From: Treponema sp.
GTDB lineage: Bacteria > Spirochaetota > Spirochaetia > Treponematales > Breznakiellaceae
Assembly: GCA_031266875.1 (NCBI GenBank)
Contig: JAISAE010000056.1
Coordinates: forward strand, 3,630-67,629
Direction: 5' to 3'
DNA length: 64,000 nucleotides
Below the pieces are notes generated by a model. The model had not been told where the DNA came from. It was given only the letters and a program-made list of their open reading frames with translations, and searched no databases. Shown here one piece after another: positions 24,154 to 64,000 of the stretch. The number at the start of each line of letters is the position of its first letter. Position 1 is the first letter of the stretch. The translations under genes and the position numbers were made by a program.

Positions 24154-25135
24154 ACTCTTATCACTTGAAAACGTAAGCGTCTCGTATTCCTTACGCAGAA
24201 GCGCGAACAGCAGCGTGTTTTCCCAAAGCGTGAGTGAGCTGCGGGCTGTTGACGACGTGTCCTTTACCATTGCCCCACAGGAAACACTGGGGCTGGTTGG
24301 GGAATCAGGCTGCGGGAAGTCGTCACTGGCAAGGGCAATTATTGGGCTGGAACCAATAGCGGGTGGGCGGATCGTGTTTGAAGGCGTGGACTGTGCGCGG
24401 CAGCCCAGCACGTTAAAACGCGGTAGAAAGCTCCATGCGACCTATAAACGGATGCAGATGGTGTTTCAAGACCCGTCTTCATCGCTGAACCCGCGCATGA
24501 GCGTGGAAGCCATGATACAAGAAGTGCTATGGGTATACCGCATTGTGGCGCGTGAAGAACTCAGTGACGAGATTGACCGCTTGCTGGCGCTGGTTGGACT
24601 TGCGCCGGATACGCGCCGGCGTCTTCCTCACGAATTTTCCGGCGGTCAGCGGCAGCGCCTCAGTATAGCGCGTGCGCTTGCCATACGCCCGTCCCTGCTC
24701 ATTTGCGATGAGGCTACTTCATCGCTGGATGCCTCGACGCAGGCGCAGATACTCAGCCTCCTGTGCGAACTGCGCGATACGCTTGGCTTGAGCTATCTTT
24801 TTATATCACACGGGCTTGGCGCGGTAAGGCATATAAGCGACCGTGTTGCCGTGATGTATCTGGGCAAGCTTGTGGAGATTGCGCCGAGCGCCGAGCTTTT
24901 TGCCACGCCCCGCCATCCTTACACGCAGGCGCTCATTGCCGCGAATCCCACACCTGATCCGCGGCAACGGCGTGCGCGGCGGCTTCTTAAAGGTATCGCG
25001 CCCGGTTTCCTTGACCTACCCGCTGGCTGCCGTTTTCACCCCCGTTGTCCCTTTGCGCAAGAGCTTTGCCGCACGGTCGCGCCCCAGTTCCGCGACGAGG
25101 CCGGACACGCGACTGCTTGCCATTTCAACACGTAG
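24146..25135 (+). CDS. Oligopeptide/dipeptide-type ABC transporter ATP-binding protein (OppF/DppF-like)
   Basis: Walker A is GESGCGKSS, the signature is FSGGQRQR, and Walker B is LLICDEATSSLD. A C-terminal oligopeptide-type Cys motif is present (..PAGCRFHPRCPFAQELC..). Confidence 0.92.
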   Translation: MNELLSLENVSVSYSLRRSANSSVFSQSVSELRAVDDVSFTIAPQETLGLVGESGCGKSSLARAIIGLEPIAGGRIVFEGVDCARQPSTLKRGRKLHATYKRMQMVFQDPSSSLNPRMSVEAMIQEVLWVYRIVAREELSDEIDRLLALVGLAPDTRRRLPHEFSGGQRQRLSIARALAIRPSLLICDEATSSLDASTQAQILSLLCELRDTLGLSYLFISHGLGAVRHISDRVAVMYLGKLVEIAPSAELFATPRHPYTQALIAANPTPDPRQRRARRLLKGIAPGFLDLPAGCRFHPRCPFAQELCRTVAPQFRDEAGHATACHFNT

Positions 25136-26390
25136 AACAACCGCTAAGCTGCGTAGAACAACCGCCAAGCCGCGCAGGATAACCGCTAAGCCACGCAGGA
25201 CAACCGCCAAGCCGCGCAGGATAACCGCCAAGCCACGCAGGATAACCGCCAAGCCGCGCAGAACAACCGCCAAGCCGCGCAGGATAACCGCCAATCCGCG
25301 GAGAACAACCGCCAAGCCACGTCGGAAAACCGCAACGCCGCGCAGGAGAACCGCCAAGCCGCGAAGTACAACCGCCCAGCCACGCCCCAAATCCCCCTAG
25401 CCTCCCTGGCAACCCGCCCAGCCTCGCCGGCTAACCGCTACGCCTCGCAGTACAACCGCTAAGCCGCGCAGGATAACCGCCAAGCCGCGCATAACAACCG
25501 CCAAGCCGCGTAGGATAACCGCCAAGCCACGCAGGATAACCGCTAAGCCGCGCAGGATAACCGCTAAGCCGCGTAGAACAACCGCCAAGCCTCGCAGAAC
25601 AACCGCCAAGCCTCGTAGAACAACCGCCAAGCGACGCAGGATAACCGCTAAGCAGCGCAGGATAACCGCTAAGCCACGCAGAACAACCGCTAAGCCGCGC
25701 AGGATAACCGCCAAGCCACGCAGAACAACCGCCAAGCCGCGCAGGATAACCGCCAAGCCGCGCAGAACAACCGCCAAGCAACGCAGGATAACCGCCAAGC
25801 CGCGCAGAACAACCGCTAAGCCGCGCAGGATAACCGCCAAGCCGCGCAGAAAAATCGCCAAGCGACAGACAAAAACCGCCAAGCGACGCAGAACAACCGC
25901 CAAGCCGCGTAGGATAACCGCCAAGCCGCATAGAACAACCGCCAAGCAACGCAGGATAACCGCCAAGCGGTAAACAAGAACCGGCAAGGCGTAAGTAACA
26001 ACCAGCAAGGTGTAGACAACAACCAGCAAGGTGTAGACAAGAACCAGCAATCGGTAAACAACAACCGGTAAGGTGTAAACAAGAACCGCCAAGCGGTAAA
26101 CAAGAACCAGCAAGGCGTAAACAAGAACCGACAAGGCGTAGATAAGAACTAGCAAGGTGTAGACAAGAACCAGCAATCGGTAAACAACAACCGGCAAGGC
26201 GTAGACAAGAACCAGCAAGGCGTAAACAAGAATCAGCAAGCGGTAAACAAGAACCGCCAAGGTGTAAACAACAATCAGCAAGGTGTAAGTAACAACCAGC
26301 AAGGCGTAAACAAGAACCAGCAAGGCGTAAACAACAACCGCCAAGGTGTAAGCAACAACCAGCAAGGTGTAGACAACAACCAGCAATCGG
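25131..26390. repeat. Tandem array of 60 units of exactly 21 bp. Block A has 40 units (consensus cgcagGATaaccgccaagccg, alternating with ..gAACaa..). Block B has 20 units (taaacaagaaccagcaaggcg type).
   Basis: I read the units directly in register at 25131+21k. Three degenerate units at 25383-25445 keep the period. The first unit contains the TAG stop of the ABC ATPase gene. Confidence 0.95.
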
Positions 26391-26565
26391 TAAAAGCGCG
26401 GGTTTGCAGCCGCGCAAGGGTTTGGAGAGGCGCGGAATAGTTTCGGCACAAAGCACTGAAAATGAAGTCAAATTTAAAAAAATTTCGTACTATTACATAG
26501 CGGAGAAAAACCGCTGAGTGACGGACAAGAACCGCCACGCGGAAAAATTAGACTAGGAGTACGTT

Positions 26566-27240
26566 ATGGCGCATACGCAGGACTCTGTCCCCTCAAGGGA
26601 CGCGGAATTTGACGGCTGGCTGGAGAATTTAACCAGTTATGTAAACACAAAAACCTCAAGCGGGGCATGGACGCACATTCCGCCCGCCAAGGTAACAGCC
26701 TTAAGCCAGCATAACACGGACTGGCACACGGCTTACGCCAAGACATTGGGAGCGCATACCACTGTGGATACCGAGGAAAAAAAAGATCAGCGGAAGGCGG
26801 TGGAAGGTTTCGTCCGCCCCTTTATCCAGCAGTATCTCAAGTTTGATCCGGTAACCAATGAAGACCGGACAGCCATGAACCTGCATAACCGGGACGCTAC
26901 CCATTCGCCTATTGAAAAACCAACGACTAGAGCCTTGATTACCAGCCTCAAGGCGTTAGGCGGCTTTCAGGTGGAAGTCCGGTTTCAGGATGAGGCCACG
27001 CCGGACAGCCACGCTATTCCCTACGGCTGTAACGGTTGTCTTTTGCATTTTGTATGGGGGCCGGAAAAGGTAACGGATTACGCGGCCTTTTCGCACACCC
27101 AGCTGATGACCCGCACCCCTTTTGTTATTGATCTGCCGCCGGAAGCGGAAGGGAAGTTTTTATCCTGCGCTACCCATTGGCAAAACGGGCGCGGGGAATT
27201 GGGACCGTGGGGAGAGATACAACATGTTGTGATTGCGTAA
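26566..27240 (+). CDS. Hypothetical protein with no family I can recognise
   Basis: 224-aa ORF with an ATG preceded by AGGAG. It has no transmembrane segment or signal peptide. A perfect 8-bp hairpin follows at 27259-27279. Confidence 0.6.
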   Translation: MAHTQDSVPSRDAEFDGWLENLTSYVNTKTSSGAWTHIPPAKVTALSQHNTDWHTAYAKTLGAHTTVDTEEKKDQRKAVEGFVRPFIQQYLKFDPVTNEDRTAMNLHNRDATHSPIEKPTTRALITSLKALGGFQVEVRFQDEATPDSHAIPYGCNGCLLHFVWGPEKVTDYAAFSHTQLMTRTPFVIDLPPEAEGKFLSCATHWQNGRGELGPWGEIQHVVIA

Positions 27241-27442
27241 CGGCTTTGGGTAAGGCGGGGTCAGGGATTTGCCCTGACCTCTCCGGGCAAAGTAGATAGT
27301 ACGAACATGAAGGACGTATACTACGGCGCGGGGGAACATGGCGGTATTCCGGGATTCGGGTTTTGTCTCCAGTCCGGCAAAGATTAATGGTTTTGAGCTT
27401 TTCAAACTCCACGCTCCTGATGCCAAGGTAAAGGTGATATAA

Positions 27443-27658
27443 ATGTATAAACCGATAGAAGTAGACAAACAGAATCTAACGATTATGGGAATAAAATTCT
27501 CCAGTATCGAAGCCCTGGACAGCGCGGCAAACGCAATCGGCTCGAATATGTTTGAAGGCTTTGAACCAACTCCCGCATTGATCAAACTGTACCGGGATTA
27601 TACCAGCGGGAGTATAAAGGAGTATCAGCTTGTAGAGAGGCTCAGGGCCGCTCTATGA
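27443..27658 (+). CDS. VbhA-like antitoxin (Fic inhibitor)
   Basis: 71-aa ORF with the inhibitory motif [S/T]xxxE[G/N] present as SNMFEG. Its stop overlaps the Fic gene start as ATGA. Confidence 0.8.
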   Translation: MYKPIEVDKQNLTIMGIKFSSIEALDSAANAIGSNMFEGFEPTPALIKLYRDYTSGSIKEYQLVERLRAAL

Positions 27659-28260
27659 ACGATTATACATATATCGATCCTGATTATACCTACTCTAATC
27701 CTAAAACCGGTATTTTACGGAATAAAGAAAACGTTGAACGCGGCGATCTCCTTCTCGCTTTTGAAAGCTTTAAATGTTCCCAGCGTCTTGAGGAATTAAG
27801 AAAGAAACCTATCCATATTAAAGATTCAACTTCACTGCTTGATATACACAGGCATTTATTCCAGGATGTTTATGCATGGGCGGGCAAGAGACGAACCGTA
27901 GAGATTAGCAAGGACGGAAAACAATTTTTTCCGGTAAGCCATTTTGATACGGCCTTTGTTTATATTGATAATCTTGTTTCTGAATATAACGCCATCAATA
28001 AAAAAGATAAGGCTGGATTGGCCGCGAAACTTGCGGAAATTCTGGATAGAGTCAACTATCTCCACCCGTTCAGGGAAGGCAACGGTAGAACCCAGCGGGA
28101 ATTTATTCGGACTTTGGCTCTGGAAAAGGGCTATACCCTTAACCTTAACCCGCCCGACAATCAGGAAGTATATTCCCGCTATATGACCGGGACGATTGAA
28201 TCTGACGCGGAAAAACTAACGGCTTTAATATTTGAATTGCTGGTGGACTATCCTAAATGA
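27655..28260 (+). CDS. Fic family protein (class I Fic toxin, probable AMP transferase)
   Basis: 201-aa ORF with the canonical Fic motif HPFREGNGRTQR (HxFx[D/E]GNGRxxR). Confidence 0.9.
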   Translation: MNDYTYIDPDYTYSNPKTGILRNKENVERGDLLLAFESFKCSQRLEELRKKPIHIKDSTSLLDIHRHLFQDVYAWAGKRRTVEISKDGKQFFPVSHFDTAFVYIDNLVSEYNAINKKDKAGLAAKLAEILDRVNYLHPFREGNGRTQREFIRTLALEKGYTLNLNPPDNQEVYSRYMTGTIESDAEKLTALIFELLVDYPK

Positions 28261-28357
28261 AGCTCCAATTTAAGTACCAACAGTTCCGTGCTGATACCGC
28301 CTGTCTGATATTAAAGAATGTGGTAGGTTTATTGACATTTCAGACTGGAGAGACCCT

Positions 28358-29311: not shown

Positions 29312-29378
29312 GTTTTCTTAATCACCATGAGGTAGTGTGGCGCTTGACAGTGGTTTTCCAACATGAGAATCTTCTTCC

Positions 29379-29705: not shown

Positions 29706-29716
29706 CCGGAGTAAAT

Positions 29717-31189: not shown

Positions 31190-31215
31190 ATTTATAGTAA
31201 AGGAGTTAGTAAAGA

Positions 31216-38047: not shown

Positions 38048-38456
38048 TTTCATGTATAGCACCAAGCCAGCACAGATTAAACTCATTTATGCGGACGTTC
38101 CTGAACAACAGCAACTCAACATTCATCAATCTGTCTATAGCGACTTCCCCAGACGCGATTAAGCATTGAAGTTCTAAACTAGGGTTTGGAACTTTGAAAA
38201 ATGGGTTTAGAAGTTCTAATCAGCAGCAGTAATTTAATATTTATGATTTTGTCTGTAGCAATACTTCTCAGACAGGTGATACGTTGGATTGTTGTCTGAA
38301 TAGGTGTAAGCCTTTATAAAGCAGGGATACGTCGCTAAGATAGTGAAAAAGGAGCAAGCAACTCCTGAAGCGTGGCAATGATGAATGAGGCGTGTGTTAA
38401 GTTATCCCACCACAATAGGCGTGGTTATGGCGGCATACAGACTTAGCACCGCGCTG

Positions 38457-38918
38457 AGCGCAGAGTCCGCCGCCCCTAGCGCAGTCTTCGCCGCCCTTAG
38501 CGCAGCCTCCGCCGCACGTAGCGCAGAGTCCGCCGCCCTCAGCGCAGTCTTCGCCGCCCTTAGCGCAGCCTCCGCCGCCCTTAGCGCAGCCTCCGCCGCA
38601 CGTAGCGCAGTCTTCGCCGCCCTTAGCGCAGCCTCCGCCGCACGTAGCGCAGAGTCCGCCGCCCTCAGCGCAGTCTTCGCCGCCCTTAGCGTAGAGTACA
38701 CCGACTGTAGCACAGGCTCGACAGACCGTAGCGCAGGCTTAGCTGCCTGTAGTGCTGAGTTCGCCGACTGTAGCATAGGCTCGGCTGCCCTGAGCGCGGA
38801 GTACACCGGCTGTAGCGTAGGCTTGGCTGCCCTCAGCGCGGAGTCCGCTGACTGTAGCGCATACTTGGCTGCCCTCAGCGCGGAGTACACCGACTGTAGC
38901 GCGGAGTCCGCCGACATC
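38457..38918. repeat. Tandem array of 22 units of exactly 21 bp (agcgcagNNtNcgccgcNcNt type). The first half is nearly identical units and the second half is diverged.
   Basis: I read the units in register at 38457+21k. The array is followed by about 1.6 copies of a 22-bp unit, aggtatggtggcgaataggctt. Confidence 0.93.
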
Positions 38919-39140
38919 AGGTATGGTGGCGAATAGGCTTAGGTATGGTGGCGCAACAGGGGTATAAAGTAGGGATAGGTTGGTAAGACAGCGAAGAAGG
39001 AATAGGCGAGTCATGAAGCGCGGTGGCTGGGAATTGGGCGGGCGGTATAGCGATTGGCGTGGAACTTGCCAGCTTGTGAAGTATCTGGGATAACTATACT
39101 AAAGCTACTATTCAGCTTAGGGCTGAACCAAAGGGGAAAC

Positions 39141-43615: not shown

Positions 43616-45436
43616 CTAATCTGATTTTTCCACCAATAGGTTGCCAGAGAATGCTCTGTTGCTAATAGTGGCCGCGCTGTTGGGAATCGCTACACTCGTG
43701 AGGCGATTGTACGCGAAGGCCCAGTCTCCAATAAGGCTCACGCTGTTGGGAATCGCTACGTTTGTCAGGGCATTATACGCGAAGGCCCGCGCCCCAATGT
43801 TGGTAACACCGTTGGAGAATGTTACGCTCGTGAGGCTACTGTCGTAAAACGCGGCTGCGCCAATCGTTACAACACTGTCTGGTATTGTTATGCTCGTCAG
43901 GCGGTTGAAAGCAAACGCGCTTGCGCCAATGGTTCTCAGCTTGGAACCCAGCGTTACGCTGTTGAGGCGGTTATGCTGAAACGCCCAGTCGCCGATTTCG
44001 GTAACGCTGTTAGGGATGCTTACGTGCGTCAGGCGATTGTTGGCAAACGCGCTTGCGCCAATGCTTACGACGCTGGTCGGTATCGTTATCTCTGTGAGGG
44101 CATTGTCGCAAAACGCGGACGCGCCAATGGTAGTAACACTGTTGGGTATGCTTACGCTCGTCAGGCCCTTGTGAGAAAAGGCCTGTGCGCCAATGACAGC
44201 AACAGGAAGCCCGCTGATCTTTGCGGGAATACGGAGGTCTTTCGCCGCGCCAGTATACCCGATGATGCTTATCGCCCTGTTCTCAACCCGTATCTGAAAA
44301 ATATCGCTATTCTCCTCAGCCTGAACACGTTGGCTCACGACCGGAGTCGCCGCCACATTCCCCGCGATTGGTTCGCTACGGGTTATGGCAACATTGCTAT
44401 CAAATACCTCCATCCCCATATAGCTAACACTGTTGGGTATCGTTACGCTCGTCATGCGGTTGTTGGCAAACGCTTCTGCCCCAATGTAGGTAACACTGTC
44501 GGGTATCGTTATACTCGCCAGACGGTTGTCGAAGAATGCGTTCCGTCCAATGTAGGTAACACTGTCGGGTATCGTTACTTCTATGAGCTGTTTGAAAGCA
44601 AACGCATCAGCGCTGATGCTGGTAACAGGATGCCCGTTTATCTGGGCGGGAATGTGAAGGACTTTCTCGAATCCGGTATAACCGATAATGCTACCCATAT
44701 TATCCTTATCCACAATCCACGTCTGGAACTCTATGTTGTCTATTGATTGCGCAGCAGAGGCATTGGTCTGAGAAGCGGAATTCACCGGCATATCCACTGT
44801 TTGCTCACTGTAGCTTATGGCAACACTGGTATCAAAGGCTCTCGCTCCGATAACGCTTGCTCTATTGAGCGTTACGCGCTCAAGGGCATTGTTGGCGAAG
44901 GCCCTGAACCCGATGGAAGTAACGCTGCTGGGAATCGTTATGCTCGTGAGGTTGTTGTACTGAAACGCCCAATCTCCAATGGAAGTAACGCCATTGGGTA
45001 TGGTTACGCTGCTGAGCCTATTGTCAGAAAACGCCTCAGCTTCAATGGTGATGAGGCTGTCGGGCATCGCTACGTTTGTCAGGCGGTTATTGGCAAACGC
45101 GCCTTGTCCAATGGAAGTAACGCCATTAGGTATGGTTACGCTGCTAAGGCCCTTGCCGAAAAAGGCCCGCGCTTCGATTCTGGTAACAGGAAGCCCGTGT
45201 ATCTGCTCAGGGATACGAAGATCGTCTTCCACCGTTCCTGTGTAGCCCTTAATGCTTACCGCGTTGTCTACAGTCTCTGTCTCAAAACCTTCGCTGACCG
45301 TGCCTGTTGTGCTATAGGCTATGGCAACAGCATCATCGCCGTTTTCAGCCAGTATCTCAAAATCACTCGCATCCTGCCCAAACAACACAACAGTCAAAAC
45401 CATGAAACACATCAAAAACAGCCATATCTTTTTCAT
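43616..45436 (-). CDS. Secreted BspA-like leucine-rich repeat protein
   Basis: Signal peptide MKKIWLFLMCFMVLTVVLFGQ starts at the ATG at 45436. There are three modules of roughly 23-aa LRR units (..IPNSVTSIGDWAFAYNRLTSV..). Confidence 0.88.
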   Translation of the reverse strand: MKKIWLFLMCFMVLTVVLFGQDASDFEILAENGDDAVAIAYSTTGTVSEGFETETVDNAVSIKGYTGTVEDDLRIPEQIHGLPVTRIEARAFFGKGLSSVTIPNGVTSIGQGAFANNRLTNVAMPDSLITIEAEAFSDNRLSSVTIPNGVTSIGDWAFQYNNLTSITIPSSVTSIGFRAFANNALERVTLNRASVIGARAFDTSVAISYSEQTVDMPVNSASQTNASAAQSIDNIEFQTWIVDKDNMGSIIGYTGFEKVLHIPAQINGHPVTSISADAFAFKQLIEVTIPDSVTYIGRNAFFDNRLASITIPDSVTYIGAEAFANNRMTSVTIPNSVSYMGMEVFDSNVAITRSEPIAGNVAATPVVSQRVQAEENSDIFQIRVENRAISIIGYTGAAKDLRIPAKISGLPVAVIGAQAFSHKGLTSVSIPNSVTTIGASAFCDNALTEITIPTSVVSIGASAFANNRLTHVSIPNSVTEIGDWAFQHNRLNSVTLGSKLRTIGASAFAFNRLTSITIPDSVVTIGAAAFYDSSLTSVTFSNGVTNIGARAFAYNALTNVAIPNSVSLIGDWAFAYNRLTSVAIPNSAATISNRAFSGNLLVEKSD

Positions 45437-45804
45437 ACCATACTCCTGCAAAGACACAAGGGAAGTGTCAATTGACAAGTCCCCGCCTTTAGGCGGGGGA
45501 TTCTTGATTCATTGTCCATTGCCAAGGGGTATACCTTGGTTTTCGCAAAAACTCCCTATCAAAGAGAGTTTTCCACGTGCTCAAACCCGATACTCCCCCG
45601 GCCTTACTTGGACTCACCAAACGTAGATTCCCGTGTGTCCCACGGTATAACTATCATATCTTACCATAGTATGCAAGCTCACAGATAAAAATTCTTCGGA
45701 TTTTTTGCGCCTTCCCATGCCAAAGGCTTTACGGCGCTTAACAATAAGTATCATCTTAAAAAGAAAGAAGCACTAACAACAACACAACAATGTACCATGC
45801 AATC

Positions 45805-45877
45805 TGCCGCCAGAGGGAATTGAACCCTCGACACAAGGATTTTCAGTCCTTTGCTCTACCGACTGAGCTACAGCGGC
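45805..45877 (-). tRNA. tRNA-Phe (anticodon GAA)
   Basis: The reverse complement, GCCGCTGTAGCTCAGTCGGTAGAGCAAAGGACTGAAAATCCTTGTGTCGAGGGTTCAATTCCCTCTGGCGGCA, folds as a cloverleaf. The anticodon loop is CTGAAAA and the T-loop is GGTTCAATTCC. Confidence 0.92.
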
Positions 45878-46011: not shown

Positions 46012-46443
46012 ATGAGAATCTCTACCAAAGGCCGTTACTCATTGGAAGCTTTACTCTATATGGCTCTTTTGCCTGAAGGCGAGTCCGCGAGCGCCAGAGT
46101 CATTTCTCAAAATACCAGTATATCGGAGGGCTACCTTGAACAACTCTTTATCCCCCTGCGGAAGGCTGGCATCATCCAGGCTATTAGAGGCCCGCTGGGA
46201 GGCTATATTCCGGGCAGAGCGCTTGAACGCATAAGCGCGGGTCAAATCCTGCGTGCGGTTGAGGGGGCGCTTGAGCCAGTTGACTGCGTTACCTTAAAGC
46301 CCTGTCCAGCTCAAAGTTACTGCATGTCCAGACATACATGGAGCGAACTCTATAAGGAAATAAACGCCTGCGTTGATTCCATCTCCCTTGCTGATCTGGT
46401 TAAAGCCTATCACGCTATGGATAAGGTGGATTACACAATATGA
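46012..46443 (+). CDS. Rrf2 family transcriptional regulator with a C-x5-C-x5-C cluster motif
   Basis: MRISTKGRYSLEALLYM.. with the Cys triad DCVTLKPCPAQSYC, spaced as in IscR/NsrR. Confidence 0.88.
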   Translation: MRISTKGRYSLEALLYMALLPEGESASARVISQNTSISEGYLEQLFIPLRKAGIIQAIRGPLGGYIPGRALERISAGQILRAVEGALEPVDCVTLKPCPAQSYCMSRHTWSELYKEINACVDSISLADLVKAYHAMDKVDYTI

Positions 46444-46874
46444 AGATTTCTACACGAGGACGCTATGGTATCCGGCTTCTGATTGATCTGGCCGAGCATC
46501 TGAACGAAGCCCCTGTTTCCCTTCCCAGCATGGCTGAGCGTCAGGGCATCTCAACCCGTTACTTTGAACAGATCGCGGTGATCCTGCGAAACGCTGGCTT
46601 TATACGCTCGGTGAAAGGCGCTTTAGGCGGCTATACATTGTCCCGGCGGCCTGAAGAGCTTACCGTAGGCGAGGTGCTGAGAAAACTTGAAGGGGATATG
46701 CTGGTGCTTGACCCGCCGCTCTCCACTGTACAGGAAAGCAGGTTACAACGCTGTATCAGGCTTACTGTCTTTGACCGCATGAACGAGTGCGTCGCCGGAG
46801 TCATTGACCACACAACGCTGGCTTCAATGATCGGTACTATCGATCCCGATGACTCGTATATGTACTTTATCTGA
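46440..46874 (+). CDS. Rrf2 family transcriptional regulator lacking the Cys triad
   Basis: MKISTRGRYGIRLLIDLAEH.. Its start overlaps the upstream Rrf2 stop as ATGA. Confidence 0.88.
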   Translation: MKISTRGRYGIRLLIDLAEHLNEAPVSLPSMAERQGISTRYFEQIAVILRNAGFIRSVKGALGGYTLSRRPEELTVGEVLRKLEGDMLVLDPPLSTVQESRLQRCIRLTVFDRMNECVAGVIDHTTLASMIGTIDPDDSYMYFI

Positions 46875-47866: not shown

Positions 47867-47966
47867 GGCGGCGCAACAGCACAAGAGGGGACAACCTCCT
47901 CTTGCCGGCATAGAGATAAAGATGCCTTAGTATACAAGGCGGAAAGTCTGGTAGGAGAAGGGTAAA

Positions 47967-48169
47967 ATGAATATAGTTCCGATAGTGGCGATATTATGCT
48001 TGTTTATTGGCTTGCCGGGTGCTATATGCTTCTTTGCGATAAGGGCAAAAAGCTAAAGCAACAGAAGAAGGTGTTAGAACTAAAACTGGAACGGGAACGG
48101 ATTCGCCTGCAACTATTAGAAGAAGAAAACAGAAAGTATGACCGCATAATCGACAAGCACCGGAGATAA
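47967..48169 (+). CDS. Small single-pass membrane plus coiled-coil protein, split by a frame change at an A5 run
   Basis: The ATG at 47967 follows AGGAGAAGGG. MNIVPIVAILCLFIGLPGAICFFAIRAKS* stops at 48054-48056. The -1 frame continues from 48050 as KLKQQKKVLELKLERERIRLQLLEEENRKYDRIIDKHRR* and ends at 48169. Neither piece is in the ORF track because both are under 60 aa. Confidence 0.35.
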
Positions 48170-48216
48170 AGCATTAAGCCTCAGAAAGCCTGCCCGGAGT
48201 TCAAAAACGTCTGACG

Positions 48217-48699
48217 CAACTCCACCTTAGTCAAGGTGAAGTCCACCTGGGGTAGATTGAAGTCCACCTGGGGTAGATTGAAGTCCACCTGGGGTAGATT
48301 GAAGTCCACCTGGGGTAGATTGAACTCCACCTGGGGTAGATTGAAGTCCACCTGGGGTAGATTGAAGTCCACCTGGGGCAAGGTGAACTCCACCTGGAGT
48401 AGATTGAACTCCACCTGGGGCAAGGTGAACTCCACCTGGAGTAGATTGAACTCCACCTGGGGTAGATTGAACTCCACCTGGGGTAGATTGAACTCCACCT
48501 GGAGTAGATTGAACTCCACCTGGCGTAGATTGAAGTCCACCTGGAGTAGATTGAAGTCCACCTGGGGTAGATTGAAGTCCACCTGGGGTAGATTGAAGTC
48601 CACCTGGGGCAAGGTGAACTCCACCTGGAGTAGATTGAACTCCACCTGGGGCAAGGTGAACTCTACCTGGAGTAGATTGAAGTGGATAGTGAATAGGTT
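48217..48699. repeat. Tandem array of 23 units of exactly 21 bp (gaagtccacctggggtagatt, with gaactcc, ggagtagatt and ggggcaaggt variants)
   Basis: I read the units in register at 48217+21k. The first and last units are degenerate. Confidence 0.95.
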
Positions 48700-48813
48700 A
48701 TTGAGACACCAATGTTTCGCTGATCACTATCACTGCTCACTAGTAGATTGGACAGAGGATAGTGAGTAGGTTATTCGTGAAACACCAATGTTTCGCTGAT
48801 CATTACTCACTAA
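48684..48813. repeat. Direct duplication of two copies, 73 bp apart (ggatagtgaRtaggttatt..acaccaatgtttcgctgatca..ctcacta)
   Basis: The copies start at 48684 and 48757. Each copy is preceded by an ..agtagattg.. fragment of the neighbouring 21-bp unit. Confidence 0.8.
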
Positions 48814-48831
48814 TACATATTGGAATAGAAC

Positions 48832-55823: not shown

Positions 55824-55974
55824 AAAAAACTCCTTCACAAGTATATTTAGCATAACTGCTGAGGGGACTATAGTGATCCGGGAGGGTTTCTGTCAACGAT
55901 GTTCGTTCATCGTTTAGCGATTTAACATTGATTTAACACATACCTGTCATCTTCATCATTCAACGTCGTGCCTT

Positions 55975-56053
55975 CTGACATTGCCTTAGTCAGCCCGCTG
56001 ACCCTGCCTTAGCCAGCTCTCTGACATTGCCTTAGTCAGCCCGCTGACATTGT
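55975..56053. repeat. 3.4 tandem copies of a 23-bp unit (ctgacattgccttagtcagcccg)
   Basis: Units start at 55975, 55998, 56021 and 56044. Each unit contains a 5-bp inverted repeat, ctgac N9 gtcag. Confidence 0.9.
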
Positions 56054-57271: not shown

Positions 57272-57518
57272 CTGCTCCTTTTAAGGCATGTAAAATAATT
57301 GGCAAACATTGTCGCAACTAGCTACTTTCGTCAAGCCTCTCAAGCAGGTTGTGTGAAAGAGAATCCTCCGCAAAGGGCAGGGTATTAGACCCATCAGTAC
57401 GAATAAGCATTGTATGGAAAAGTCCTCGTATTCTGTATGAAAAGTCGTGGACTTGCACGGAAACAACATATATTCTTACATAGATGTGTATAAACACATA
57501 CCTAACAAGGAGCGTACT

Positions 57519-59525: not shown

Positions 59526-59706
59526 AAGAGGAAGAGTGGCAGCCCATGAAGTAAAGCGCGACGTCTACATGGGCACCACATCGTTGCCGCCGTAACAATG
59601 TTTCCATGCTTAAAGACAGGGGTGTTACGGCGCTTTTGATAGACGTCCGTCAAACTCGCGCATAACGCCTTGTGGACTCTTTCAGATTAGCTATACTAGA
59701 TAACCC

Positions 59707-62700
59707 ATGAACATTACCTTTGATGAAGATCAGTATGCGGCGTATCGCGCCGATAACAATGTGGCGGTGTCGGCGGGCGCGGGATCAGGGAAGACGACAG
59801 TGCTTGCCGAGCGTTATGTGCGGCTTGTTACTGAAGGCGGGCTTGCGATTAGTGAGGTACTGACACTCACGTTCACGCGCAAGGCTGCGGCGCAGATGTA
59901 TAGCCGAATCTTCACGCGGCTGTCGGAATCTACGCACCCGCTGGCAAAAGAACGACTCGCCCAGTTCGACCAAGCGCGGATTTCAACACTGGACGCCTTT
60001 TGTTCCACCATCACCCGCGGCGTGTCGTACCGCTACGGTATCTCCGGCGACTTCCGTATTGATGACCGCTCGCTCGTGCTGGCGGCTGAGGACACGGCGG
60101 TGGAGATAATTATGCGCCACCGCCACGATACGGCTATCGGAACACTCGTGGCGGCGCGTAACTTCGAGGCCATTGTTAAAGACCTGTTTGCGGGATTGGC
60201 GCTTTCGGTGTTCAGTTTTGTGGATTCCGACCTCGCCCTGCCGGTATTTGCCGAGGGCGAGGAGAGAACTTATGCAGCCCTGGGGAAGAAGCAGGCTGAC
60301 TGTATTGAGAAAGAAGCTGGTGTGCATATCGAGAAACTGAACGCGAGCCGGAACTATATCCTCAGCCTCACGGCGGAGAACGGCAAGGAGCCTGAGTCGC
60401 TCAAAAAGATAAAGGAGGCGCTGCGGAGCAGAGCGCCGCTGGAGCCGCTGTTCGATAAGGAGCATATTGAGGCGCTGCCTGACGTGGCTGAGCATTACCT
60501 TGATGGTATTGTCCTGCGTGGAAAAATCCCAGATGAAGTTAAAGAAGCGATCATTGATATGCGGGAGCAGTTCAAGGTCTTAAAAATTCTCGCCGTAAGC
60601 CTCCTGTTCCGCGAGGACATACCCGCGCTGGGGGCAATACTGGACGAGTATCGTCAGCTTTTTCTGGATCGCAAGCGACAAACCGGCCTGCTGTCATTTG
60701 GCGACACGGCGGAGCTGGCGGTGGACGCGCTCAAGACTGATATAGACCTGCGTTCTTATTATAAAGAATACATCAAGGCCATTATGATCGATGAGTTTCA
60801 GGATAATAACCGGCTCCAGAAAGACCTGCTTTACCTCATTGCCGAGCGCGACGATCGGGGCGCCCCCGGTATCATGCCGTCAGTACAAGACCTTGCCGCG
60901 AACAAGCTCTTCTTTGTTGGCGATGAAAAGCAGTCCATCTACCGTTTCCGGGGGGCTGATGTTTCAGTGTTTAACGGGCTGTCCGAAGAGTTGGCCAAAG
61001 TTCCGGCGACAGAGGTGTCAGAGGCAGGACTGAGCATACGAAGCGCGTCTCTGACACTCAGCACGAACTACCGTTCCACAGCGGAACTCGTTGGTTTCTT
61101 CAACGCCCTGTTCCCCGGCGTGTTTGGCGAGGCGAAAAAGCTCTTTGAGGCAAAGTTCTCCCCCATGCTAACCAGAAAGGAAAAGCAGGACAGCGTTTTG
61201 CCTGTAGAGGTGTATATCCAGGAACTGCGCCGTTCCGTTGTTGCGCCAGAGGATGAGATGAATAGCGAAGAGGAAAGCGCAAAGGAGGCTGGTGAAGCGC
61301 TGGCTGCGGCAAGGCGAATCATTGCGGGGGTGAAAGATAAGGAGTTCGCGTTTGGTGACATCGCGGTACTATTTAAGTCAACCTCGCACCAGAACGAGTA
61401 TGAAAAAACCTTCCGTCAGGCCGGAATTCCCTTTAGCGCGGCAGACCCGCGTGGGCTTTTTTCCGAAGGCCCAGCTAATGACTTCTACGCCATACTGCGC
61501 CTCAGCCTTTTCCCCCTGGATCGGAACGCATACGCTACGGTACTTCGCTCGCCTTTTGTAAAGCTGGATGATGAAAGCGTATTTCGTATCATGCTGGAAA
61601 AGCCGGATACGCCTCCCTTTCCAGCTGACCTGAATGAGAAGTGGTTTGCCGCCCCGGCTGAAAAGGCGCGTTATCTCCACGGTGCTGAAGTATTTCACAC
61701 CCTAGGCGCGATGCTTGATCTGCGCGGCATAGCCGCCGCTTTCGCGTATCTGTGGTATGAGAGCGGCTATCGCACCTATCTTTTGTATAACGAAGCAGCC
61801 AGAGATCTGCTTGAGCATTTTGAGTACCTGTACGCCCTGGCTTTGGACGCGGACAAGCGCCAGCTTTCCATGAGCGCGTTTCTTGACGAGCTTGCCCCGT
61901 TTATGGGAACCACGCAGAAGGCCGAGACCAGCGACATACCAGAACAGAGCGACAAGGCGCTGTTTCTCACGGTACACAAGAGCAAGGGACTTGAGTTCCC
62001 GGTGGTGATCATTGCCAATGCCGGAGTTGAGGACACGACCGTACAGAAGGAAAAGCAGAAGCCGTATTACCTTGACCCGCAATGGGGCGTAACCCTTAAT
62101 CTCAAACGGGACACTAAGCCTCGTGATGAGAACGCGGTGTTTAACTACTTTTTTGACTTGGGTGAAACTGGCAAGAAGCTGGTGCAGGAGCAAAGCGAGG
62201 CGGAACTCAAGCGGCTTTTCTATGTGGCCGCGACCAGGGCTGAGAAACGGCTGTTTATCTTTGGCAGCCGCGCCACAACCAAAGACGAGGAGCTTGCGCT
62301 TGACAACATGGAAGCCCAGGACCGGCTGGAGGCGCTTATCCGCATGAGGCGCGTGACGGGTAAAAGCGGCGAAGACCCGCATTTCAGGCAGAAATCATTT
62401 CTTGATCTTTTTACCTCTGGCGCAGCCGCCGCTACGTTGCCTCCCTACAGACTGGTGCCTATTAGGGTCCCAACAATAGACGAATATAAGGAAGAAACGC
62501 GGCGCTTGCATGATGAGGCATCGGCTCTTCTTGCCAGAGACAAGCCACCATCGCCTGAAACGGAAAAACTCACGCCGGCCCGCTTTTACAATACGCCAGC
62601 GCGGAACGAACCGCCTTCCCCGCGCCGCGCCGCAAGCCCTACCCGCATGGAGGAGCGTAACCGCGAACTGCACTCGGAAGACTATCGCCGGGGCGAGGAC

Positions 62701-63492
62701 CTGCAAGACTTTGACTGCCAGCGTTTTTTAGACCGTGCAGGCGATCCTGAGCAAACGCCGTTTGAAAGCGCGGATACCGCGCCTTCCCATGCCAATGAAG
62801 CCACGCGCCTTGCCTTTGGCACGCCGTTTGAAAGCGCGGATACCGCGCCTTCCCGTGCCAATGAAGCCACGCGCCTTGCCTTTGGCACGCCGTTTGAAAG
62901 CGCGGATACCGCGCCTTCCCGTGCCAATGAAGCCACGCGCCTTGCCTTTGGCACACTCTGCCACCGCGTAATAGAACACCTGCTTTCCGGTGATATATCC
63001 GATGAGTCGTGGCTAGAAGACGCGGCGCTTGAAGAGGCGCGGACGCTTTTCCCCGAAGCCCCGTTTGCCGATAAGCGCGACACTGGTCAGGCGCGGCTTG
63101 CCTTTGCACAAGAAGCTCTGCGCATAGCGCGACGCTTTATGGTGAGTGACCTGGGCAAGGAAGCCCTTGCCGCGAAAAACCGCCGAAGTGAGTTTCCCTT
63201 TATCCTGCCATTGGGAAGCGAAGCCAGCCGTGTGCTTGTACGTGGTTCCATTGACCTTATCTACGAACATAACGGCCGCTGTACAATCATTGATTTCAAG
63301 ACCGACAAGCACCTCAACATTGCGTCGCATCAGGTTCAACTTGCCTGTTACGCGCTTGCCGCTGAAGCCTTCTCCGGTCTACCCACGCGAACCGTGCTGG
63401 TCTACCTGCGCGAGTCAGATATGCCGGCGCGTGAGCTTGCGAGCAATATTGACGAGGCGCAGTTGATAGAACTTGCGCGTAGCCTGACGTAA
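59707..63492 (+). CDS. UvrD/PcrA-type helicase fused to a PD-(D/E)XK nuclease (AddA/RecB-like)
   Basis: 1261-aa ORF with Walker A AGAGSGKTT, helicase motifs (..IMIDEFQDNN.., ..TVHKSKGLEF..) and a C-terminal nuclease motif (..GSIDLIYEHNGRCTIIDFKTDK..). Confidence 0.88.
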   Translation: MNITFDEDQYAAYRADNNVAVSAGAGSGKTTVLAERYVRLVTEGGLAISEVLTLTFTRKAAAQMYSRIFTRLSESTHPLAKERLAQFDQARISTLDAFCSTITRGVSYRYGISGDFRIDDRSLVLAAEDTAVEIIMRHRHDTAIGTLVAARNFEAIVKDLFAGLALSVFSFVDSDLALPVFAEGEERTYAALGKKQADCIEKEAGVHIEKLNASRNYILSLTAENGKEPESLKKIKEALRSRAPLEPLFDKEHIEALPDVAEHYLDGIVLRGKIPDEVKEAIIDMREQFKVLKILAVSLLFREDIPALGAILDEYRQLFLDRKRQTGLLSFGDTAELAVDALKTDIDLRSYYKEYIKAIMIDEFQDNNRLQKDLLYLIAERDDRGAPGIMPSVQDLAANKLFFVGDEKQSIYRFRGADVSVFNGLSEELAKVPATEVSEAGLSIRSASLTLSTNYRSTAELVGFFNALFPGVFGEAKKLFEAKFSPMLTRKEKQDSVLPVEVYIQELRRSVVAPEDEMNSEEESAKEAGEALAAARRIIAGVKDKEFAFGDIAVLFKSTSHQNEYEKTFRQAGIPFSAADPRGLFSEGPANDFYAILRLSLFPLDRNAYATVLRSPFVKLDDESVFRIMLEKPDTPPFPADLNEKWFAAPAEKARYLHGAEVFHTLGAMLDLRGIAAAFAYLWYESGYRTYLLYNEAARDLLEHFEYLYALALDADKRQLSMSAFLDELAPFMGTTQKAETSDIPEQSDKALFLTVHKSKGLEFPVVIIANAGVEDTTVQKEKQKPYYLDPQWGVTLNLKRDTKPRDENAVFNYFFDLGETGKKLVQEQSEAELKRLFYVAATRAEKRLFIFGSRATTKDEELALDNMEAQDRLEALIRMRRVTGKSGEDPHFRQKSFLDLFTSGAAAATLPPYRLVPIRVPTIDEYKEETRRLHDEASALLARDKPPSPETEKLTPARFYNTPARNEPPSPRRAASPTRMEERNRELHSEDYRRGEDLQDFDCQRFLDRAGDPEQTPFESADTAPSHANEATRLAFGTPFESADTAPSRANEATRLAFGTPFESADTAPSRANEATRLAFGTLCHRVIEHLLSGDISDESWLEDAALEEARTLFPEAPFADKRDTGQARLAFAQEALRIARRFMVSDLGKEALAAKNRRSEFPFILPLGSEASRVLVRGSIDLIYEHNGRCTIIDFKTDKHLNIASHQVQLACYALAAEAFSGLPTRTVLVYLRESDMPARELASNIDEAQLIELARSLT
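62755..62952 (+). repeat. Three in-frame tandem copies of a 66-bp (22-aa) unit inside the helicase-nuclease gene
   Basis: The unit TPFESADTAPS[H/R]ANEATRLAFG occurs three times. Copies 2 and 3 are identical and copy 1 differs by one nucleotide. Confidence 0.95.
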
Positions 63493-63519
63493 CAGCAATT
63501 ACCAAAAGCGCCGTAAACC

Positions 63520-64000
63520 CCCGCACTCCAGCCTATAGTGGTCGACGCCTCCAGCTTAGAGTGGCCGACCACTCCAGCCTATAGTGGTCGACGCCTCCAG
63601 CCTATAGTGGTCGACGCCTCCAGCTTAGAGTGGCCGACCACTCCAGCCTATAGTGGTCGACGCCTCCAGCTTAGAGTGGCCGACCACTCCAACCTATAGT
63701 GGTCGACGCCTCCAGCTTAGAGTGGTCGACGCCTCCAGCTTAGATCACGACCACGCTCCAGCTTAGAGTGGCCGACGCCTCCAGCTTAGAGTGGTCGACG
63801 CCTCCAGCCTATAGTGGCCGACCACTCCAGCTTAGAGTGGCCGACCACTCCAGCCTATAGTGGCCGACCACTCCAGCCTATAGTGGCCGACCACTCCAGC
63901 CTATAGTGGTCGACGCCTCCAGCCTATAATGGCCGACCACTCCAGCCTATAATGGTCGACGCCTCCAGCTTAGAGTGGCTGACCACTTCAGCCTATAGTG
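63520..64000. repeat. Tandem array of at least 21 units of 23 bp (cgacCACtccagcCTATagtggY alternating with cgacGCCtccagcTTAGagtggY), truncated by the window end
   Basis: Units are in register at 63520+23k, with one indel-bearing unit near 63730-63770. The array starts 28 nt after the stop of the helicase-nuclease gene. Confidence 0.93.

Follow-up and report, generated by a model that had tools for sequence, protein, structure and literature searches.

What produces intergenic tandem arrays whose units keep the same length and differ in sequence from one array to the next? The question is raised by a window of 64,000 nucleotides (the whole stretch of DNA analysed here), which is part of a 93-kb contig from a Treponema sp. 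MAG whose relatives are termite-gut Treponema. A preliminary description had counted five such arrays, with a period locked to 21 or 23 bp, and repeat detection with TRF recovered all five of them where they had been placed. The arrays and the features around them are as follows:

25131..25970: array 1a, 40 units of 21 bp, CGCAGGATAACCGCCAAGCCG / CGCAGAACAACCGCC...
25971..26390: array 1b, 20 units of 21 bp, TAAACAAGAACCAGCAAGGCG
26501..26542: two degenerate array-1-like units of 21 bp, cggagaaaaaccgctgagtga and cggacaagaaccgccacgcgg, from reading of the sequence
25136..28357, plus strand: 3.2-kb segment with array 1, a gene for a 224-aa hypothetical protein, a putative VbhA-like antitoxin ORF and a Fic gene
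38315..38375: left copy of the duplication bracketing array 2, native intergenic sequence
38457..38708: array 2a, 12 units of 21 bp, AGCGCAG[AGT/TCT/CCT]CCGCCGCC..., with a 63-bp higher-order repeat
38709..38918: array 2b, 10-11 units of 21 bp, with a 42/84-bp higher-order repeat
38919..38960: third unit type, two units of 21 bp, AGGTATGGTGGCGAATAGGCT, in register with array 2
38963..39023: right copy of the duplication bracketing array 2
47870..48826: indel segment with a frameshifted gene for a 67-aa small protein, array 3 and the 76-bp repeat
48217..48699: array 3, about 23 units of 21 bp, GAAGTCCACCTGGGGTAGATT and variants
48671..48811: 76-bp direct repeat, 1.9 copies, between array 3 and the ppx start
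55975..56053: array 4, 3.4 units of 23 bp, CTGACATTGCCTTAGTCAGCCCG, with 5-bp stems CTGAC/GTCAG
63526..64000: array 5, at least 20.7 units of 23 bp, CTCCAGCCTATAGTGGTCGACGC / CTCCAGCTTAGAGTGGCCGACCA

Composition, authenticity and coding potential

The first unit of array 1 overlaps the stop codon of an oppF-like ATPase gene (24146-25135), and TRF returns the array as two rows, at 25137-25968 (21 bp, 39.6 copies) and 25970-26386 (21 bp, 19.9 copies). Since both parts have the same register and a common core, A.AACC...AAG, array 1b represents a diverged subfamily, and array 1 is a single 60-unit array with subfamilies of 40 and 20 units. About 110 bp of unique sequence separate it from the degenerate units. 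Array 2 gives a row at 38449-38902, with a period of 21 bp and super-periods of 63, 42 and 84 bp; on inspection, a copy related to the third unit type also lies to its left, at about 38410-38430. The remaining rows are at 48237-48681 (21 bp, 21.2 copies) for array 3; at 55975-56052 (23 bp, 3.4 copies) for array 4, which is flanked on one side by an Lcl_C-domain gene and on the other by an opp-type binding-protein gene, each on the minus strand; and at 63526-64000 (23 bp, 20.7 copies, super-period 69 bp) for array 5, which starts 33 bp past the addA stop and continues past the window end. Indels amount to 0% across the rows, except in weak alternative rows (array 2, second block). As first described, each array is built from few unit variants, which differ at fixed positions and recombine when listed in register; all four combinations of CCTAT or CTTAG with TCGACGC or CCGACCA are present in array 5. 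The units are likewise unrelated between arrays: k-mers common to arrays are no more frequent than in shuffled units, and unit identity between arrays, at the best rotation and strand, falls within the null, save for orthologous arrays and the pair L162/L166.

Repeats are generally hard to assemble, and nothing further favours the possibility that the assembler made the arrays by collapsing or expanding repeats. Contig L001, an independent assembly of short reads (sample SRR14710922), matches with 100% identity across 3595 bp; it begins within the last units of array 3, entering from the array's 3' side. Equivalent arrays occur in NCBI MAGs and JGI contigs that were assembled independently, and arrays of up to 400 bp are found in several independent assemblies. 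The internal variant pattern is moreover non-random and without indels. The independent contig and the equivalents elsewhere confirm that the arrays are real, and an artefact is next to inconceivable.

It is also hardly tenable that the 21-bp arrays encode proteins made of seven-residue repeats, such as SAESAAL/SAVFAAL in the ORF at 38385-38936. Although 21 is divisible by 3, two to four of the six frames of each 21-bp array are open or have a single stop, and ORFs of 157-350 aa are listed across arrays 1-3, open frames are present on both strands, which any stop-free 21-mer would give. Stop codons interrupt all six frames of the 23-bp arrays, which are instances of the same phenomenon; this agrees with the initial view that the arrays are intergenic. 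In array 2, variation peaks at second codon positions of the open frame, and an excess of third-position variation is not consistent across the 21-bp arrays. Close relatives lack the arrays, and a suitably spaced ribosome-binding site was not seen in the sequence inspected. The arrays are non-coding, which is demonstrated outright only for the 23-bp class.

Period, position and turnover within the clade

Across 1.05 Mb from 80 relatives, with periods of 16-56 bp considered, we found eight arrays of 21 bp, three of 23 bp, two of 18 bp and one, coding, of 24 bp. The closest relatives (approximately 90 kb) contributed 10 further arrays with periods of 21, 23, 42 or 24 bp; in these and in the window, array density is about 1 per 9 kb. 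None of the arrays surveyed has a period of 20 or 22 bp, and no array of 21 or 23 bp occurs in the control, 1.0 Mb of more distant relatives. Overall, 21 of the 22 tallied non-coding arrays have a period of 21 or 23 bp (P ~1e-17, compared to a uniform distribution over 16-30 bp). The preliminary description had staked its claim on such an enrichment, which is found within the approximately 2.3 Mb of related sequence surveyed in total and is genuine and clade-wide. The period is not strictly locked, as one non-coding array has 24 bp (L180 13745-14005). The arrays are genuine non-coding minisatellites typical of one termite-gut Treponema clade.

Each array with a visible downstream gene had also been described as ending about 110-230 bp upstream of the next gene start. 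The distances in the window are indeed 175, 225, 132 and 121 bp (225 bp being measured to the true iorA start at 39144, fixed by homologues of 596-599 aa), but the rule does not extend further: among the 16-17 arrays with known neighbours, seven have convergent neighbours, so that the array is not followed by a start, and one or two (L181 1250-1657, for example) have divergent ones. The apparent upstream placement arises because genes are in co-directional order. Most arrays start between a 5-bp overlap with the stop codon and approximately 130 bp past the stop, and they mostly favour sites after gene 3' ends, not specifically upstream of starts.

The arrays are often missing from orthologous sites. 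The 3.2-kb segment with array 1 parts the oppF-like gene from a permease gene; in relatives the two are adjacent (4 bp apart in L162/L163, 148 bp in L164), and array 1 is missing at the orthologous site in L162-L164, as is array 2 in L165-L170. Array 3 is missing in two of three relatives, L002 and L003, together with the indel segment, and the M19 dipeptidase gene and ppx are 21-30 bp apart there; L004 has a shorter version of the segment, with a short ortholog of array 3 (4.7 copies, diverged unit GTAGATTGAAGTTCGCCGGGA). Synteny between the window and L004 stops at 55963, before array 4. At the site downstream of addA, L180 carries an unrelated 24-bp array, and L181 and L182 carry none. Phased binding platforms, contingency spacers and products of site-specific amplification, the three functions first put forward, keep the standing of candidates, but if the arrays regulated their neighbouring genes in a conserved way, such absences in close relatives would not be expected. 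Array persistence is hinted at by L059 and L061, where related 23-bp units follow the same gene and the proteins of the flanking genes are just 68% identical. The addA gene itself contains a 66-bp in-frame triplication, with copies 99% identical and a single copy in relatives, which is active tandem duplication in this genome.

Alternative origins and functions

The preliminary statement that no described system explains the arrays was too strong. The closest known analogue is BrickBuilt of Porphyromonas gingivalis, a spacer-less intergenic minisatellite of 23 nt with up to 22.8 copies, whose copy number differs between strains and whose SNPs are interval-patterned (PMC4596501); REP/BIME elements resemble the Treponema arrays in their preference for co-directional and convergent spacers (PMC3733652). 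The likeness to BrickBuilt, the presence or absence of arrays among relatives and the occurrence of one unit type at two loci might suggest that a mobile element carried the arrays in by transposition. By BrickBuilt's criteria, however, the Treponema arrays are not MITEs: no common motif was found, nor any leader, tail or terminal inverted repeats common to the flanks of 19 arrays. Each unit is private to its own locus in 2.2 Mb, except in L162 and L166, whose arrays have no flanks in common, and the units of array 2 and L004 look like local native sequence. Transposition is largely refuted and very improbable. A period that is conserved while the sequence is not would also be expected of a length-measuring enzyme. 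Staggered cuts of 21/23 bp by an integrase-, transposase- or Cas1-like protein, or hairpin-templated copying, would repeatedly duplicate a fixed length of any sequence landed on and form arrays de novo at insertion junctions. A case in which arbitrary sequence is duplicated at a fixed length is known from off-target CRISPR adaptation. Inserted genes do adjoin array 1 (the Fic module) and array 3 (a small ORF), synteny breaks at array 4 and at L003b, and the site downstream of addA gained unrelated arrays twice. Such an enzyme is nonetheless decidedly unlikely, as target-site duplication of unit length is not consistent (the flanking duplication is at least 61 bp at array 2, 13 bp at L004 and not significant at arrays 1, 3 and 4), no candidate gene was found next to the arrays, and higher-order repeats suggest ordinary multi-unit slippage or recombination. 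TRF detected no two-copy 'newborn' duplication of 21 or 23 bp within the window.

Two functional readings are both unlikely. The units may be sites for a DNA-binding protein, often a dimer, forming phased iteron-, operator- or centromere-like platforms in which repetition every two turns on one helix face would allow cooperative binding, DNA wrapping or protein titration. Consistent with this, 21 bp equal two turns of B-DNA, many units contain perfect or near-perfect palindromes of 10-14 bp that resemble the sites of dimeric repressors (CCGACATGTCGG, AAGCGTCGACGCTT, TCAGTATACTGA, TTCCGCGGAA), and one of these, which other relatives have as a single copy, has been amplified at two unrelated loci. 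Plasmid iterons, with family-specific sequences and a common spacing of about 22 bp, follow the same logic. However, units unrelated between arrays would require dozens to hundreds of different proteins, and no candidate binder gene consistently adjoins the arrays. Arrays 1 and 2 lack a dyad, periods of 23 and 24 bp fall outside helical phase, known sets of iterons or operators are far smaller than 40-60 copies, and the empty orthologous sites of close relatives count here as well. The arrays might otherwise act in RNA, as REP/BIME-like 3'-UTR elements, rows of small hairpins on the transcript of the upstream gene, with roles in mRNA 3'-end stabilisation, transcription termination or insulation, or binding of RNA-binding proteins. 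Their position after stop codons and their REP-like choice of spacers agree with this, as do the 36% of unit/strand tests, about one third, that fold significantly better than shuffles (z < -1), the compensatory changes and G-T intermediate pairs in the stems of L029 and L165a, which could reflect selection on structure, and the weak pairs of arrays 3 and 5, which are T-G on the sense strand. Hairpin potential is absent from the largest arrays (1 and 2), though, and the commoner variants of array 5, array 3 and L003b are the less palindromic ones, with broken stems. In L072b the sense strand has A-C mismatches, sites resembling terminators or promoters occur near arrays no more often than in shuffles, a search of the arrays against Rfam matched no family, and the L181 array sits between divergent genes.

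Proposed local seeding and amplification

The explanation that we tentatively favour, with a probability of about 0.45, is that the arrays are locally seeded minisatellites amplified by slippage or recombination, whose length preference partly tracks a geometry of a dyad plus 9 nt. Array 2 bears a local sequence signature: its units contain AGCGCAGAG(T)CCG, where the unduplicated site of L167 reads AGCGCAGAGCCG, and 61 bp or more of native sequence are directly duplicated around it (score 52, compared to a null maximum of 26) and single-copy in L167-L170. The L004 unit, ...CGGACGGGGGTAGATTGAA, resembles native GCGGACGTGTGGATGAA on both flanks of that array, with borderline significance. Higher-order repeats again point towards multi-unit slippage or recombination: the 63-bp match in array 2a is 90%, compared to 80% at 21 bp (TRF), the 46-bp match in L165 is 98%, compared to 67% at 23 bp, and L162 and L166 have a higher-order period of 42 bp.

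Periods of 21 and 23 bp without any of 20 or 22 bp form too sharp a rule for plain slippage, which is not known to favour such lengths. As read from the units, about half of the dyad-symmetric ones combine a dyad of 12, 14 or 15 bp with a 9-nt spacer, which gives 21 bp (array 3 variant b, L029, L162, L165b, L166b), 23 bp (array 4, array 5 variant b, L165a) or 24 bp (L180b). The 13-nt dyad that a 22-bp period would need is not among the dyads seen. The non-symmetric arrays (arrays 1 and 2, L072a, L064 and L180a), the longest array among them, all fall outside this geometry; dyad symmetry is enriched, not universal. The core unit CCGACATGTCGGCAAAA, amplified at two non-orthologous loci with no flanks in common, fits either a common binding site or mobility.

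We infer slippage or recombination as the engine, neutrality of the arrays and the reason for the length rule. Under local seeding and amplification, a short piece of resident intergenic DNA would seed an array, which would grow and homogenise by out-of-register replication slippage, unequal sister-strand recombination or gene conversion, often in steps of two or three units. Arrays could be lost within the divergence time of species at approximately 80-92% protein identity, and would persist at sites that tolerate extra DNA, just past gene 3' ends and where inserted or rearranged DNA joins its surroundings. The preference for 21 and 23 bp may then be a property of the amplification process of this lineage, or of which seeds amplify. 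A dedicated function would not be required, and any influence on termination, insulation or the local structure of the DNA may be a by-product.

Array periods in the window and in related genomes

Tandem Repeats Finder (TRF) recovered all five intergenic arrays at the coordinates of the preliminary description, with 0% indels:

Array 1a, 25137-25968: 21 bp, 39.6 copies
Array 1b, 25970-26386: 21 bp, 19.9 copies
Array 2, 38449-38902: 21 bp, with super-periods of 63, 42 and 84 bp
Array 3, 48237-48681: 21 bp, 21.2 copies
Array 4, 55975-56052: 23 bp, 3.4 copies
Array 5, 63526-64000 and past the window end: 23 bp, 20.7 copies, with a super-period of 69 bp

Together these arrays account for about 4% of the window. 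Array 1, with a length of 1.26 kb, is one 60-unit array whose two subfamilies (1a and 1b) have the core A.AACC...AAG in common, and array 2 is composed of two blocks (2a and 2b), after which come two units of yet another type. When the arrays are written out in register, all units keep phase throughout and each array contains a few unit variants, with differences confined to fixed positions. Array 5 combines CCTAT or CTTAG with TCGACGC or CCGACCA, and 4/4 combinations occur, which indicates that the modules recombine. The genes of the window are those of an ordinary chromosome and comprise a ribosomal-protein cluster, fabD/G/F, gatCAB, asnS, iorA, ppx-ppk, an opp-type transporter, addA and a GH42 galactosidase gene. 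The region of the ribosomal-protein/secY cluster (1-17500, minus strand) has a GC content of 46-50% and a GC skew of -0.16 to -0.28; outside it, GC is 52-59% and the skew is near 0. Two adjoining paralogous genes for Rrf2-family regulators (143 and 144 aa) lie at 46012-46874, upstream of an M19 dipeptidase gene.

Arrays of 2.8 or more copies were counted by TRF in three sets of relatives (loci and contigs of relatives are designated L001 to L183, with suffixes a, b and c for separate arrays on one contig). The first set, composed of 80 ppx-centred loci (1.05 Mb), contains eight arrays of 21 bp, three of 23 bp, two of 18 bp and a single 24-bp array, which lies within an ORF; there are zero arrays at 16, 17, 19, 20, 22 or 25-56 bp in the same 1.05 Mb. 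Longer periods in this set (57-144 bp) are mostly multiples of 3 and lie in ORFs, for example in BspA-type LRR genes. A BspA-type leucine-rich-repeat protein with 66-bp (22-aa) repeats is also encoded on the minus strand of the window, at 43616-45478; L003 has a gene like it, and L059, L068 and L020 contain far longer genes with 66/69-bp repeats. The second set, a control of 80 iorA-centred metagenome loci from more distant relatives (at most 66% identity, 1.0 Mb), holds no 21- or 23-bp arrays. The third set consists of about 90 kb from contigs of the closest relatives, found via flanking proteins (L162-L170 and L180-L183). It adds ten further arrays, with periods of 21 bp (L162, L164, L165, L166, L181), 42 bp (L166), 23 bp with up to 17.5 copies (L165, L180, L181) and, in one non-coding array, 24 bp (L180, 13745-14005).

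Overall, the period is 21 or 23 bp in 21 of the 22 arrays tallied (P about 1e-17, against uniform periods of 16-30 bp), and no 20- or 22-bp array was found in the window or the three surveyed sets. The enrichment at 21 and 23 bp that had been described from the window thus holds in related loci. In the window and its closest relatives, arrays occur about once every 9 kb. Arrays of this kind are missing from the 20 ppx loci whose accessions start with WQ or WR, so that only a part of the group seems to have the trait. The best relatives of the ppx protein are termite-gut Treponema MAGs, the top three being 94-95% identical, and the oppF-like protein of the window is a 100% match to MDR1325658.1 ('MAG: Treponema sp.'). 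The addA protein likewise has a 100% match with this annotation, and the two entries are on one contig of 93,221 bp.

Because arrays are often at or near the ends of short-read contigs (L001, L003, L164, L165 and L180 all begin or end in or near one), public MAGs under-report them. The 7-bp repeat AAACAGC at the contig end of L167 (6867-6921; 7.9 copies, 100% identical) is another repeat-induced assembly break.

Turnover of the arrays, and their proposed local origin and growth

At the site of array 1, relatives have the permease gene directly after the oppF-like gene, with a gap of 4 bp in L162 and L163 (81% OppF identity) and of 148 bp in L164 (82%). In the window, this operon is split by a 3.2-kb insertion (25136-28357), in which GC falls to about 48% and which contains the following:

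Array 1
A 224-aa hypothetical gene without family match
About 27443-27658: small VbhA-like ORF, putative antitoxin
27655-28260: Fic-domain gene

Array 2 is absent in L165 (90% IorA identity), where the same neighbour genes are separated by a spacer of just 132 bp, and also in L166 to L170 (87-92% IorA identity). It is bracketed by a duplication of native sequence (38315-38375 and 38963-39023; score 52, null maximum 26) that is single-copy in L167, and its unit includes AGCGCAGAG(T)CCG, corresponding to native AGCGCAGAGCCG. Given this duplication and the match of the unit to native sequence, array 2 looks home-grown rather than imported.

The segment with array 3 (47870-48826) is missing in L002 and L003 (about 90% DNA identity). 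The array has about 22 copies in the window and 4.7 copies of a diverged unit in L004, a comparison that, like all those of copy number and presence reported here, is between species-level genomes (some of them short-read assemblies) and not between strains of one species. In L004, a copy of native GCGGACGTGTGGA flanks the array on either side, and the array unit is similar to this sequence, at borderline significance. Array 4 is located exactly at the end of synteny with L004. At the site of array 5, downstream of addA, there is an unrelated 24-bp array in L180 and no array in L181 and L182. Flanking duplications measure at least 61 bp (array 2) and 13 bp (L004), and those at arrays 1, 3 and 4 are not significant; as they have no constant length, a unit-length target-site duplication is unsupported.

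Two further features lie around array 3. A gene for a small transmembrane and coiled-coil protein (47968-48170) is frameshifted by a 1-nt deletion; it is intact in L004 (67 aa, 128-331), whereas L002 and L003 lack it. A 76-bp direct repeat (48671-48811, 1.9 copies), which L002-L004 do not have, follows array 3 and lies immediately upstream of the ppx start codon.

Higher-order periods are widespread among the arrays. In array 2a the 63-bp match is 90%, compared with 80% for the 21-bp match, array 2b has periods of 42 and 84 bp and array 5 one of 69 bp (all by TRF). The 46-bp match in L165 is 98%, compared with 67% at 23 bp, and a 42-bp period occurs in L162 and L166. Higher-order periods and recombinant variants are the classical signature of multi-unit slippage and of unequal exchange or conversion. 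These processes would explain the alternation of variants, likened to a binary code in the preliminary description, which is confirmed here. Tandem growth has also occurred within a gene. addA (59707-63492) contains a 66-bp in-frame tandem triplication (62755-62954; copies 99% identical), whose product has TPFESADTAPSRANEATRLAFG in three copies immediately ahead of the conserved GTLCHRVIEHLL motif. The element is single-copy in four relatives (70-86% identity), and the triplication represents a coding minisatellite that expanded recently in the gene of a DNA-repair helicase-nuclease.

Unit sequence, dyad geometry and placement

We found no motif common to the units, as 4-6-mers on both strands are not above shuffled units. 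An all-against-all blastn-short comparison of the 300-bp flanks of 19 arrays returned no common leader, tail or terminal inverted repeats; only orthologous gene flanks matched. Dispersed copies of the units, sought as 17-mers with at most 2 mismatches in 2.2 Mb, are limited to chance-level single matches apart from L162/L166, and unit identity across arrays is within the null except for array 3/L004 and L059/L061 (orthologous), and L162/L166. In this last case (L162, 8548-8683; L166, 1481-1697), two genomes amplify CCGACATGTCGGCAAAA as 21/42-bp arrays at unrelated loci with no flanks in common. The amplified unit is the palindrome CCGACATGTCGG followed by CAAAA, which also occurs singly in L074, L140 and L142, and the palindrome may represent an operator-like site that is conserved. 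A homology of array 5 with L165a was rejected: their stem-loop-spacer geometry looks alike, but their identity (13/23) is within the null. Promoter and terminator consensus sequences near the arrays are at chance level, and CsrA-type GGA, Chi-like, DdeI-like CTNAG and GTAG tags were dropped as post-hoc and not general. At the gathering threshold of Rfam 15 no array was matched, the sole match in the window being tRNA-Phe (45805-45877).

Other repeats were observed in the relatives. In L059 (4404-5111) and L061 (5379-6086), the gene of a 235-aa protein is followed by related 23-bp arrays, and the downstream ORF in L061 resembles a truncated cytosine-5 DNA methyltransferase. These loci suggest that arrays occur also in accessory or defence-type DNA. 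T. primitia ZAS-10 and another MAG contain a dispersed palindromic element with GTCCGTGAGGTCCGTGG and its complement CCACGGACC...ACGGACAAAG (L021, 15200-15420; L079, 13260-13380). The L021 copy forms a large hairpin around a 23-bp x 3 repeat with a T-run at the end, and the element looks like a REP/MITE-like terminator element, separate from the arrays.

A lead on the length rule comes from the many units that are composed of a dyad and a 9-nt spacer:

Dyad of 12 nt (4-bp stem, 4-nt loop), period 21 bp: unit variant b of array 3, L029, L162, L165b, L166b
Dyad of 14 nt (5-bp stem, 4-nt loop), period 23 bp: array 4, unit variant b of array 5, L165a
Dyad of 15 nt (5-bp stem, 5-nt loop), period 24 bp: L180b

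Since each added stem pair contributes 2 nt, 22 bp is skipped with 4-nt loops. This scheme fits only about half of the dyad-symmetric units (L072b, L003b, L003c, L061 and L181a have other geometries) and none of the asymmetric arrays, the 60-unit array 1 included. Units fold better than shuffles (z < -1) in 36% of the unit/strand tests, and not in arrays 1 and 2, L072a and L064; a universal hairpin was set aside, as arrays 1, 2 and several others fold no better than shuffles. In L029, compensatory pair changes with G-T intermediates affect two positions of the stem, and L165a has compensatory pair changes too. Such changes may arise without selection, via quasi-palindrome template switching. 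The less palindromic variant is in the majority in array 5, array 3 and L003b.

Arrays were also classified by the orientation of the adjacent genes:

Convergent (7): L003b, L059, L064, L072b, L162, L180a, L181b
Co-directional (7-8): arrays 1-4 of the window, L072a, L079, L166, probably L165a
Divergent (1-2): L181a; L023 is ambiguous

Seven convergent contexts and one divergent give a one-sided P of about 0.035, where the chromosome expectation is equal numbers of the two kinds of spacer. Arrays usually start soon after a stop codon, with offsets that include -5, 4, 7, 33, 47, 58, 66, 84 and 114-134 bp. REP elements are reported to be distributed in this way (PMC3733652), and the pattern argues against a promoter-proximal role. 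The proposal that arrays end 110-230 bp before the next gene start is numerically right in the window, where array 2 ends 225 bp upstream of the true start of iorA (39144), but is not general across the relatives.

Known systems and interpretation

Literature searches found no description of such repeats in Treponema and, on a 21/23-bp rule in bacteria, only BrickBuilt and a REP survey. The closest analogue of the arrays is BrickBuilt of Porphyromonas gingivalis, so the earlier remark that no described system known to its author explains the arrays is too strong. BrickBuilt (Klein et al. 2015, PMC4596501) is a spacer-less 23-nt tandem repeat, always intergenic and in 1-22.8 copies. The same unit sequence recurs at its 19 loci, leader and tail are conserved, and the element has terminal inverted repeats of IS5 type as well as short target-site duplications; tandem repeats of 22, 23 and 41 nt have been noted in the same species. 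Both BrickBuilt and the Treponema arrays are spacer-less and intergenic, gain and lose whole units (between strains in BrickBuilt), carry interval-patterned SNPs and frequent stop codons, have units able to form stem-loops (in Treponema, those of some arrays) and genes acquired beside the element, and lack an Rfam match. Unlike BrickBuilt, each Treponema array has its own unit, private to it in 2.2 Mb, with no common leader, tail or inverted repeats, and the commoner period is 21 bp rather than 23.

REP/BIME elements (Di Nocera et al. 2013, PMC3733652) are 20-40 bp long, often palindromic, extragenic and sometimes clustered, are enriched between co-directional and convergent genes, and show alternative complementary pairs and G-T pairs in their stems. 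They form genome-wide dispersed one-sequence families with a GTAG/CGTC tetranucleotide tag, mostly as inverted dimers and rarely head-to-tail, and the GTAG types are linked to RAYT transposases (PMC3733652). The arrays resemble them in co-directional and convergent placement and in partial palindromy, but are locus-private and strictly head-to-tail, with no enriched tag and several units that are not palindromic. The iterons of plasmids and phages and the type II partition centromeres are direct repeats of family-specific sequence spaced at about 20-23 bp, iterons occurring in sets of about 3-14 beside a rep gene and an AT-rich unwinding region. The arrays likewise combine their own sequence with a common spacing near two helical turns, but are chromosomal and reach 60 copies. 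No rep or par gene lies beside them and no Rep family was matched, the neighbours being an ABC-transporter gene, a Fic gene, iorA, ppx, addA and others. Three units compared with IMG/VR revealed no viral counterpart, and a phage origin or decoy was set aside: one unit had no match and two had 4-5 isolated matches, none of them an array, roughly the number that we estimate for chance with a 17-18-mer. With CRISPR, the arrays have in common short, partly palindromic direct repeats of fixed length whose sequence differs between arrays; this class was rejected as the units abut without spacers, and no Cas family was found among roughly 40 window ORFs screened.

VNTR loci used in MLVA are head-to-tail repeats of 10-100 bp with locus-specific units, whose copy number changes by slippage or recombination, and a typical genome has a handful of them, with assorted periods and few copies. 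The arrays also consist of spacer-less head-to-tail units, are non-coding and differ in copy number or presence among relatives, and we therefore file them as minisatellites. Compared with ordinary VNTRs, they occur about once per 9 kb, extend up to 1.26 kb and have periods concentrated at 21 and 23 bp; density, array length and a sequence-independent period rule across a clade are the new features. The best reading, to which we assign a probability of roughly 45%, is that the arrays are locally seeded minisatellites with fast turnover, driven by slippage or recombination and under a lineage-specific length filter. They would be tolerated at gene 3' ends and insertion junctions, and the filter would act on their length in this lineage.

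That the arrays are an assembly artefact is extremely improbable: the independent contig L001, 100% identical over 3595 bp, begins inside array 3. Hardly more credible are coding heptads. The frames of the 21-bp arrays are trivially open on both strands, and they show no consistent excess of variation at the third codon position (array 2 varies most at the second); the 23-bp arrays are interrupted by stop codons in each of the six frames. Carriage by MITEs is very improbable too, as the arrays have no leader, tail or inverted repeats in common and their units are private to loci.

The sharp, sequence-independent 21/23-bp rule is not accounted for by textbook slippage, and implies a molecular ruler or a structural filter. 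It is unlikely that one clade of termite-gut Treponema has a lineage-specific length-measuring process, by which arbitrary local sequence is turned into hundreds of 21-/23-bp arrays per genome, and these are maintained, at the 3' ends of genes and at junctions of insertions. Such a process might rest on an enzyme or on copying templated by a hairpin; it might also consist in selection for units of dyad and 9-nt spacer that a structure-specific protein reads. A length-measuring enzyme in particular is less likely still. The chance is small also for phased protein-binding platforms, where spacing near two helical turns speaks for the idea and units of unrelated sequence against it. Hairpin arrays acting at the RNA level in 3'-UTRs are comparably doubtful: array starts just past stop codons and compensatory changes speak for them, long arrays that fold no better than shuffles against them.

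If a length-measuring process or selection for dyad units were true, the arrays would be a new class of genome-structuring element and not passive junk, with possible roles as hot spots of recombination and gene acquisition, insulators of supercoiling or transcription, or phased chromatin platforms. If the density of the window holds genome-wide, each genome would carry hundreds of minisatellites, which would rank with the heaviest satellite loads known from bacterial chromosomes, and this load would be largely hidden as short-read assemblies break at arrays. Satellites limit the contiguity of MAGs in termite-gut Treponema, and the arrays could serve as strain-typing markers for these treponemes. 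They are found at indels, at synteny breaks and together with inserted toxin-antitoxin genes, and may therefore mark the places where the genomes of these uncultivated symbionts are rearranged, or promote rearrangement there.
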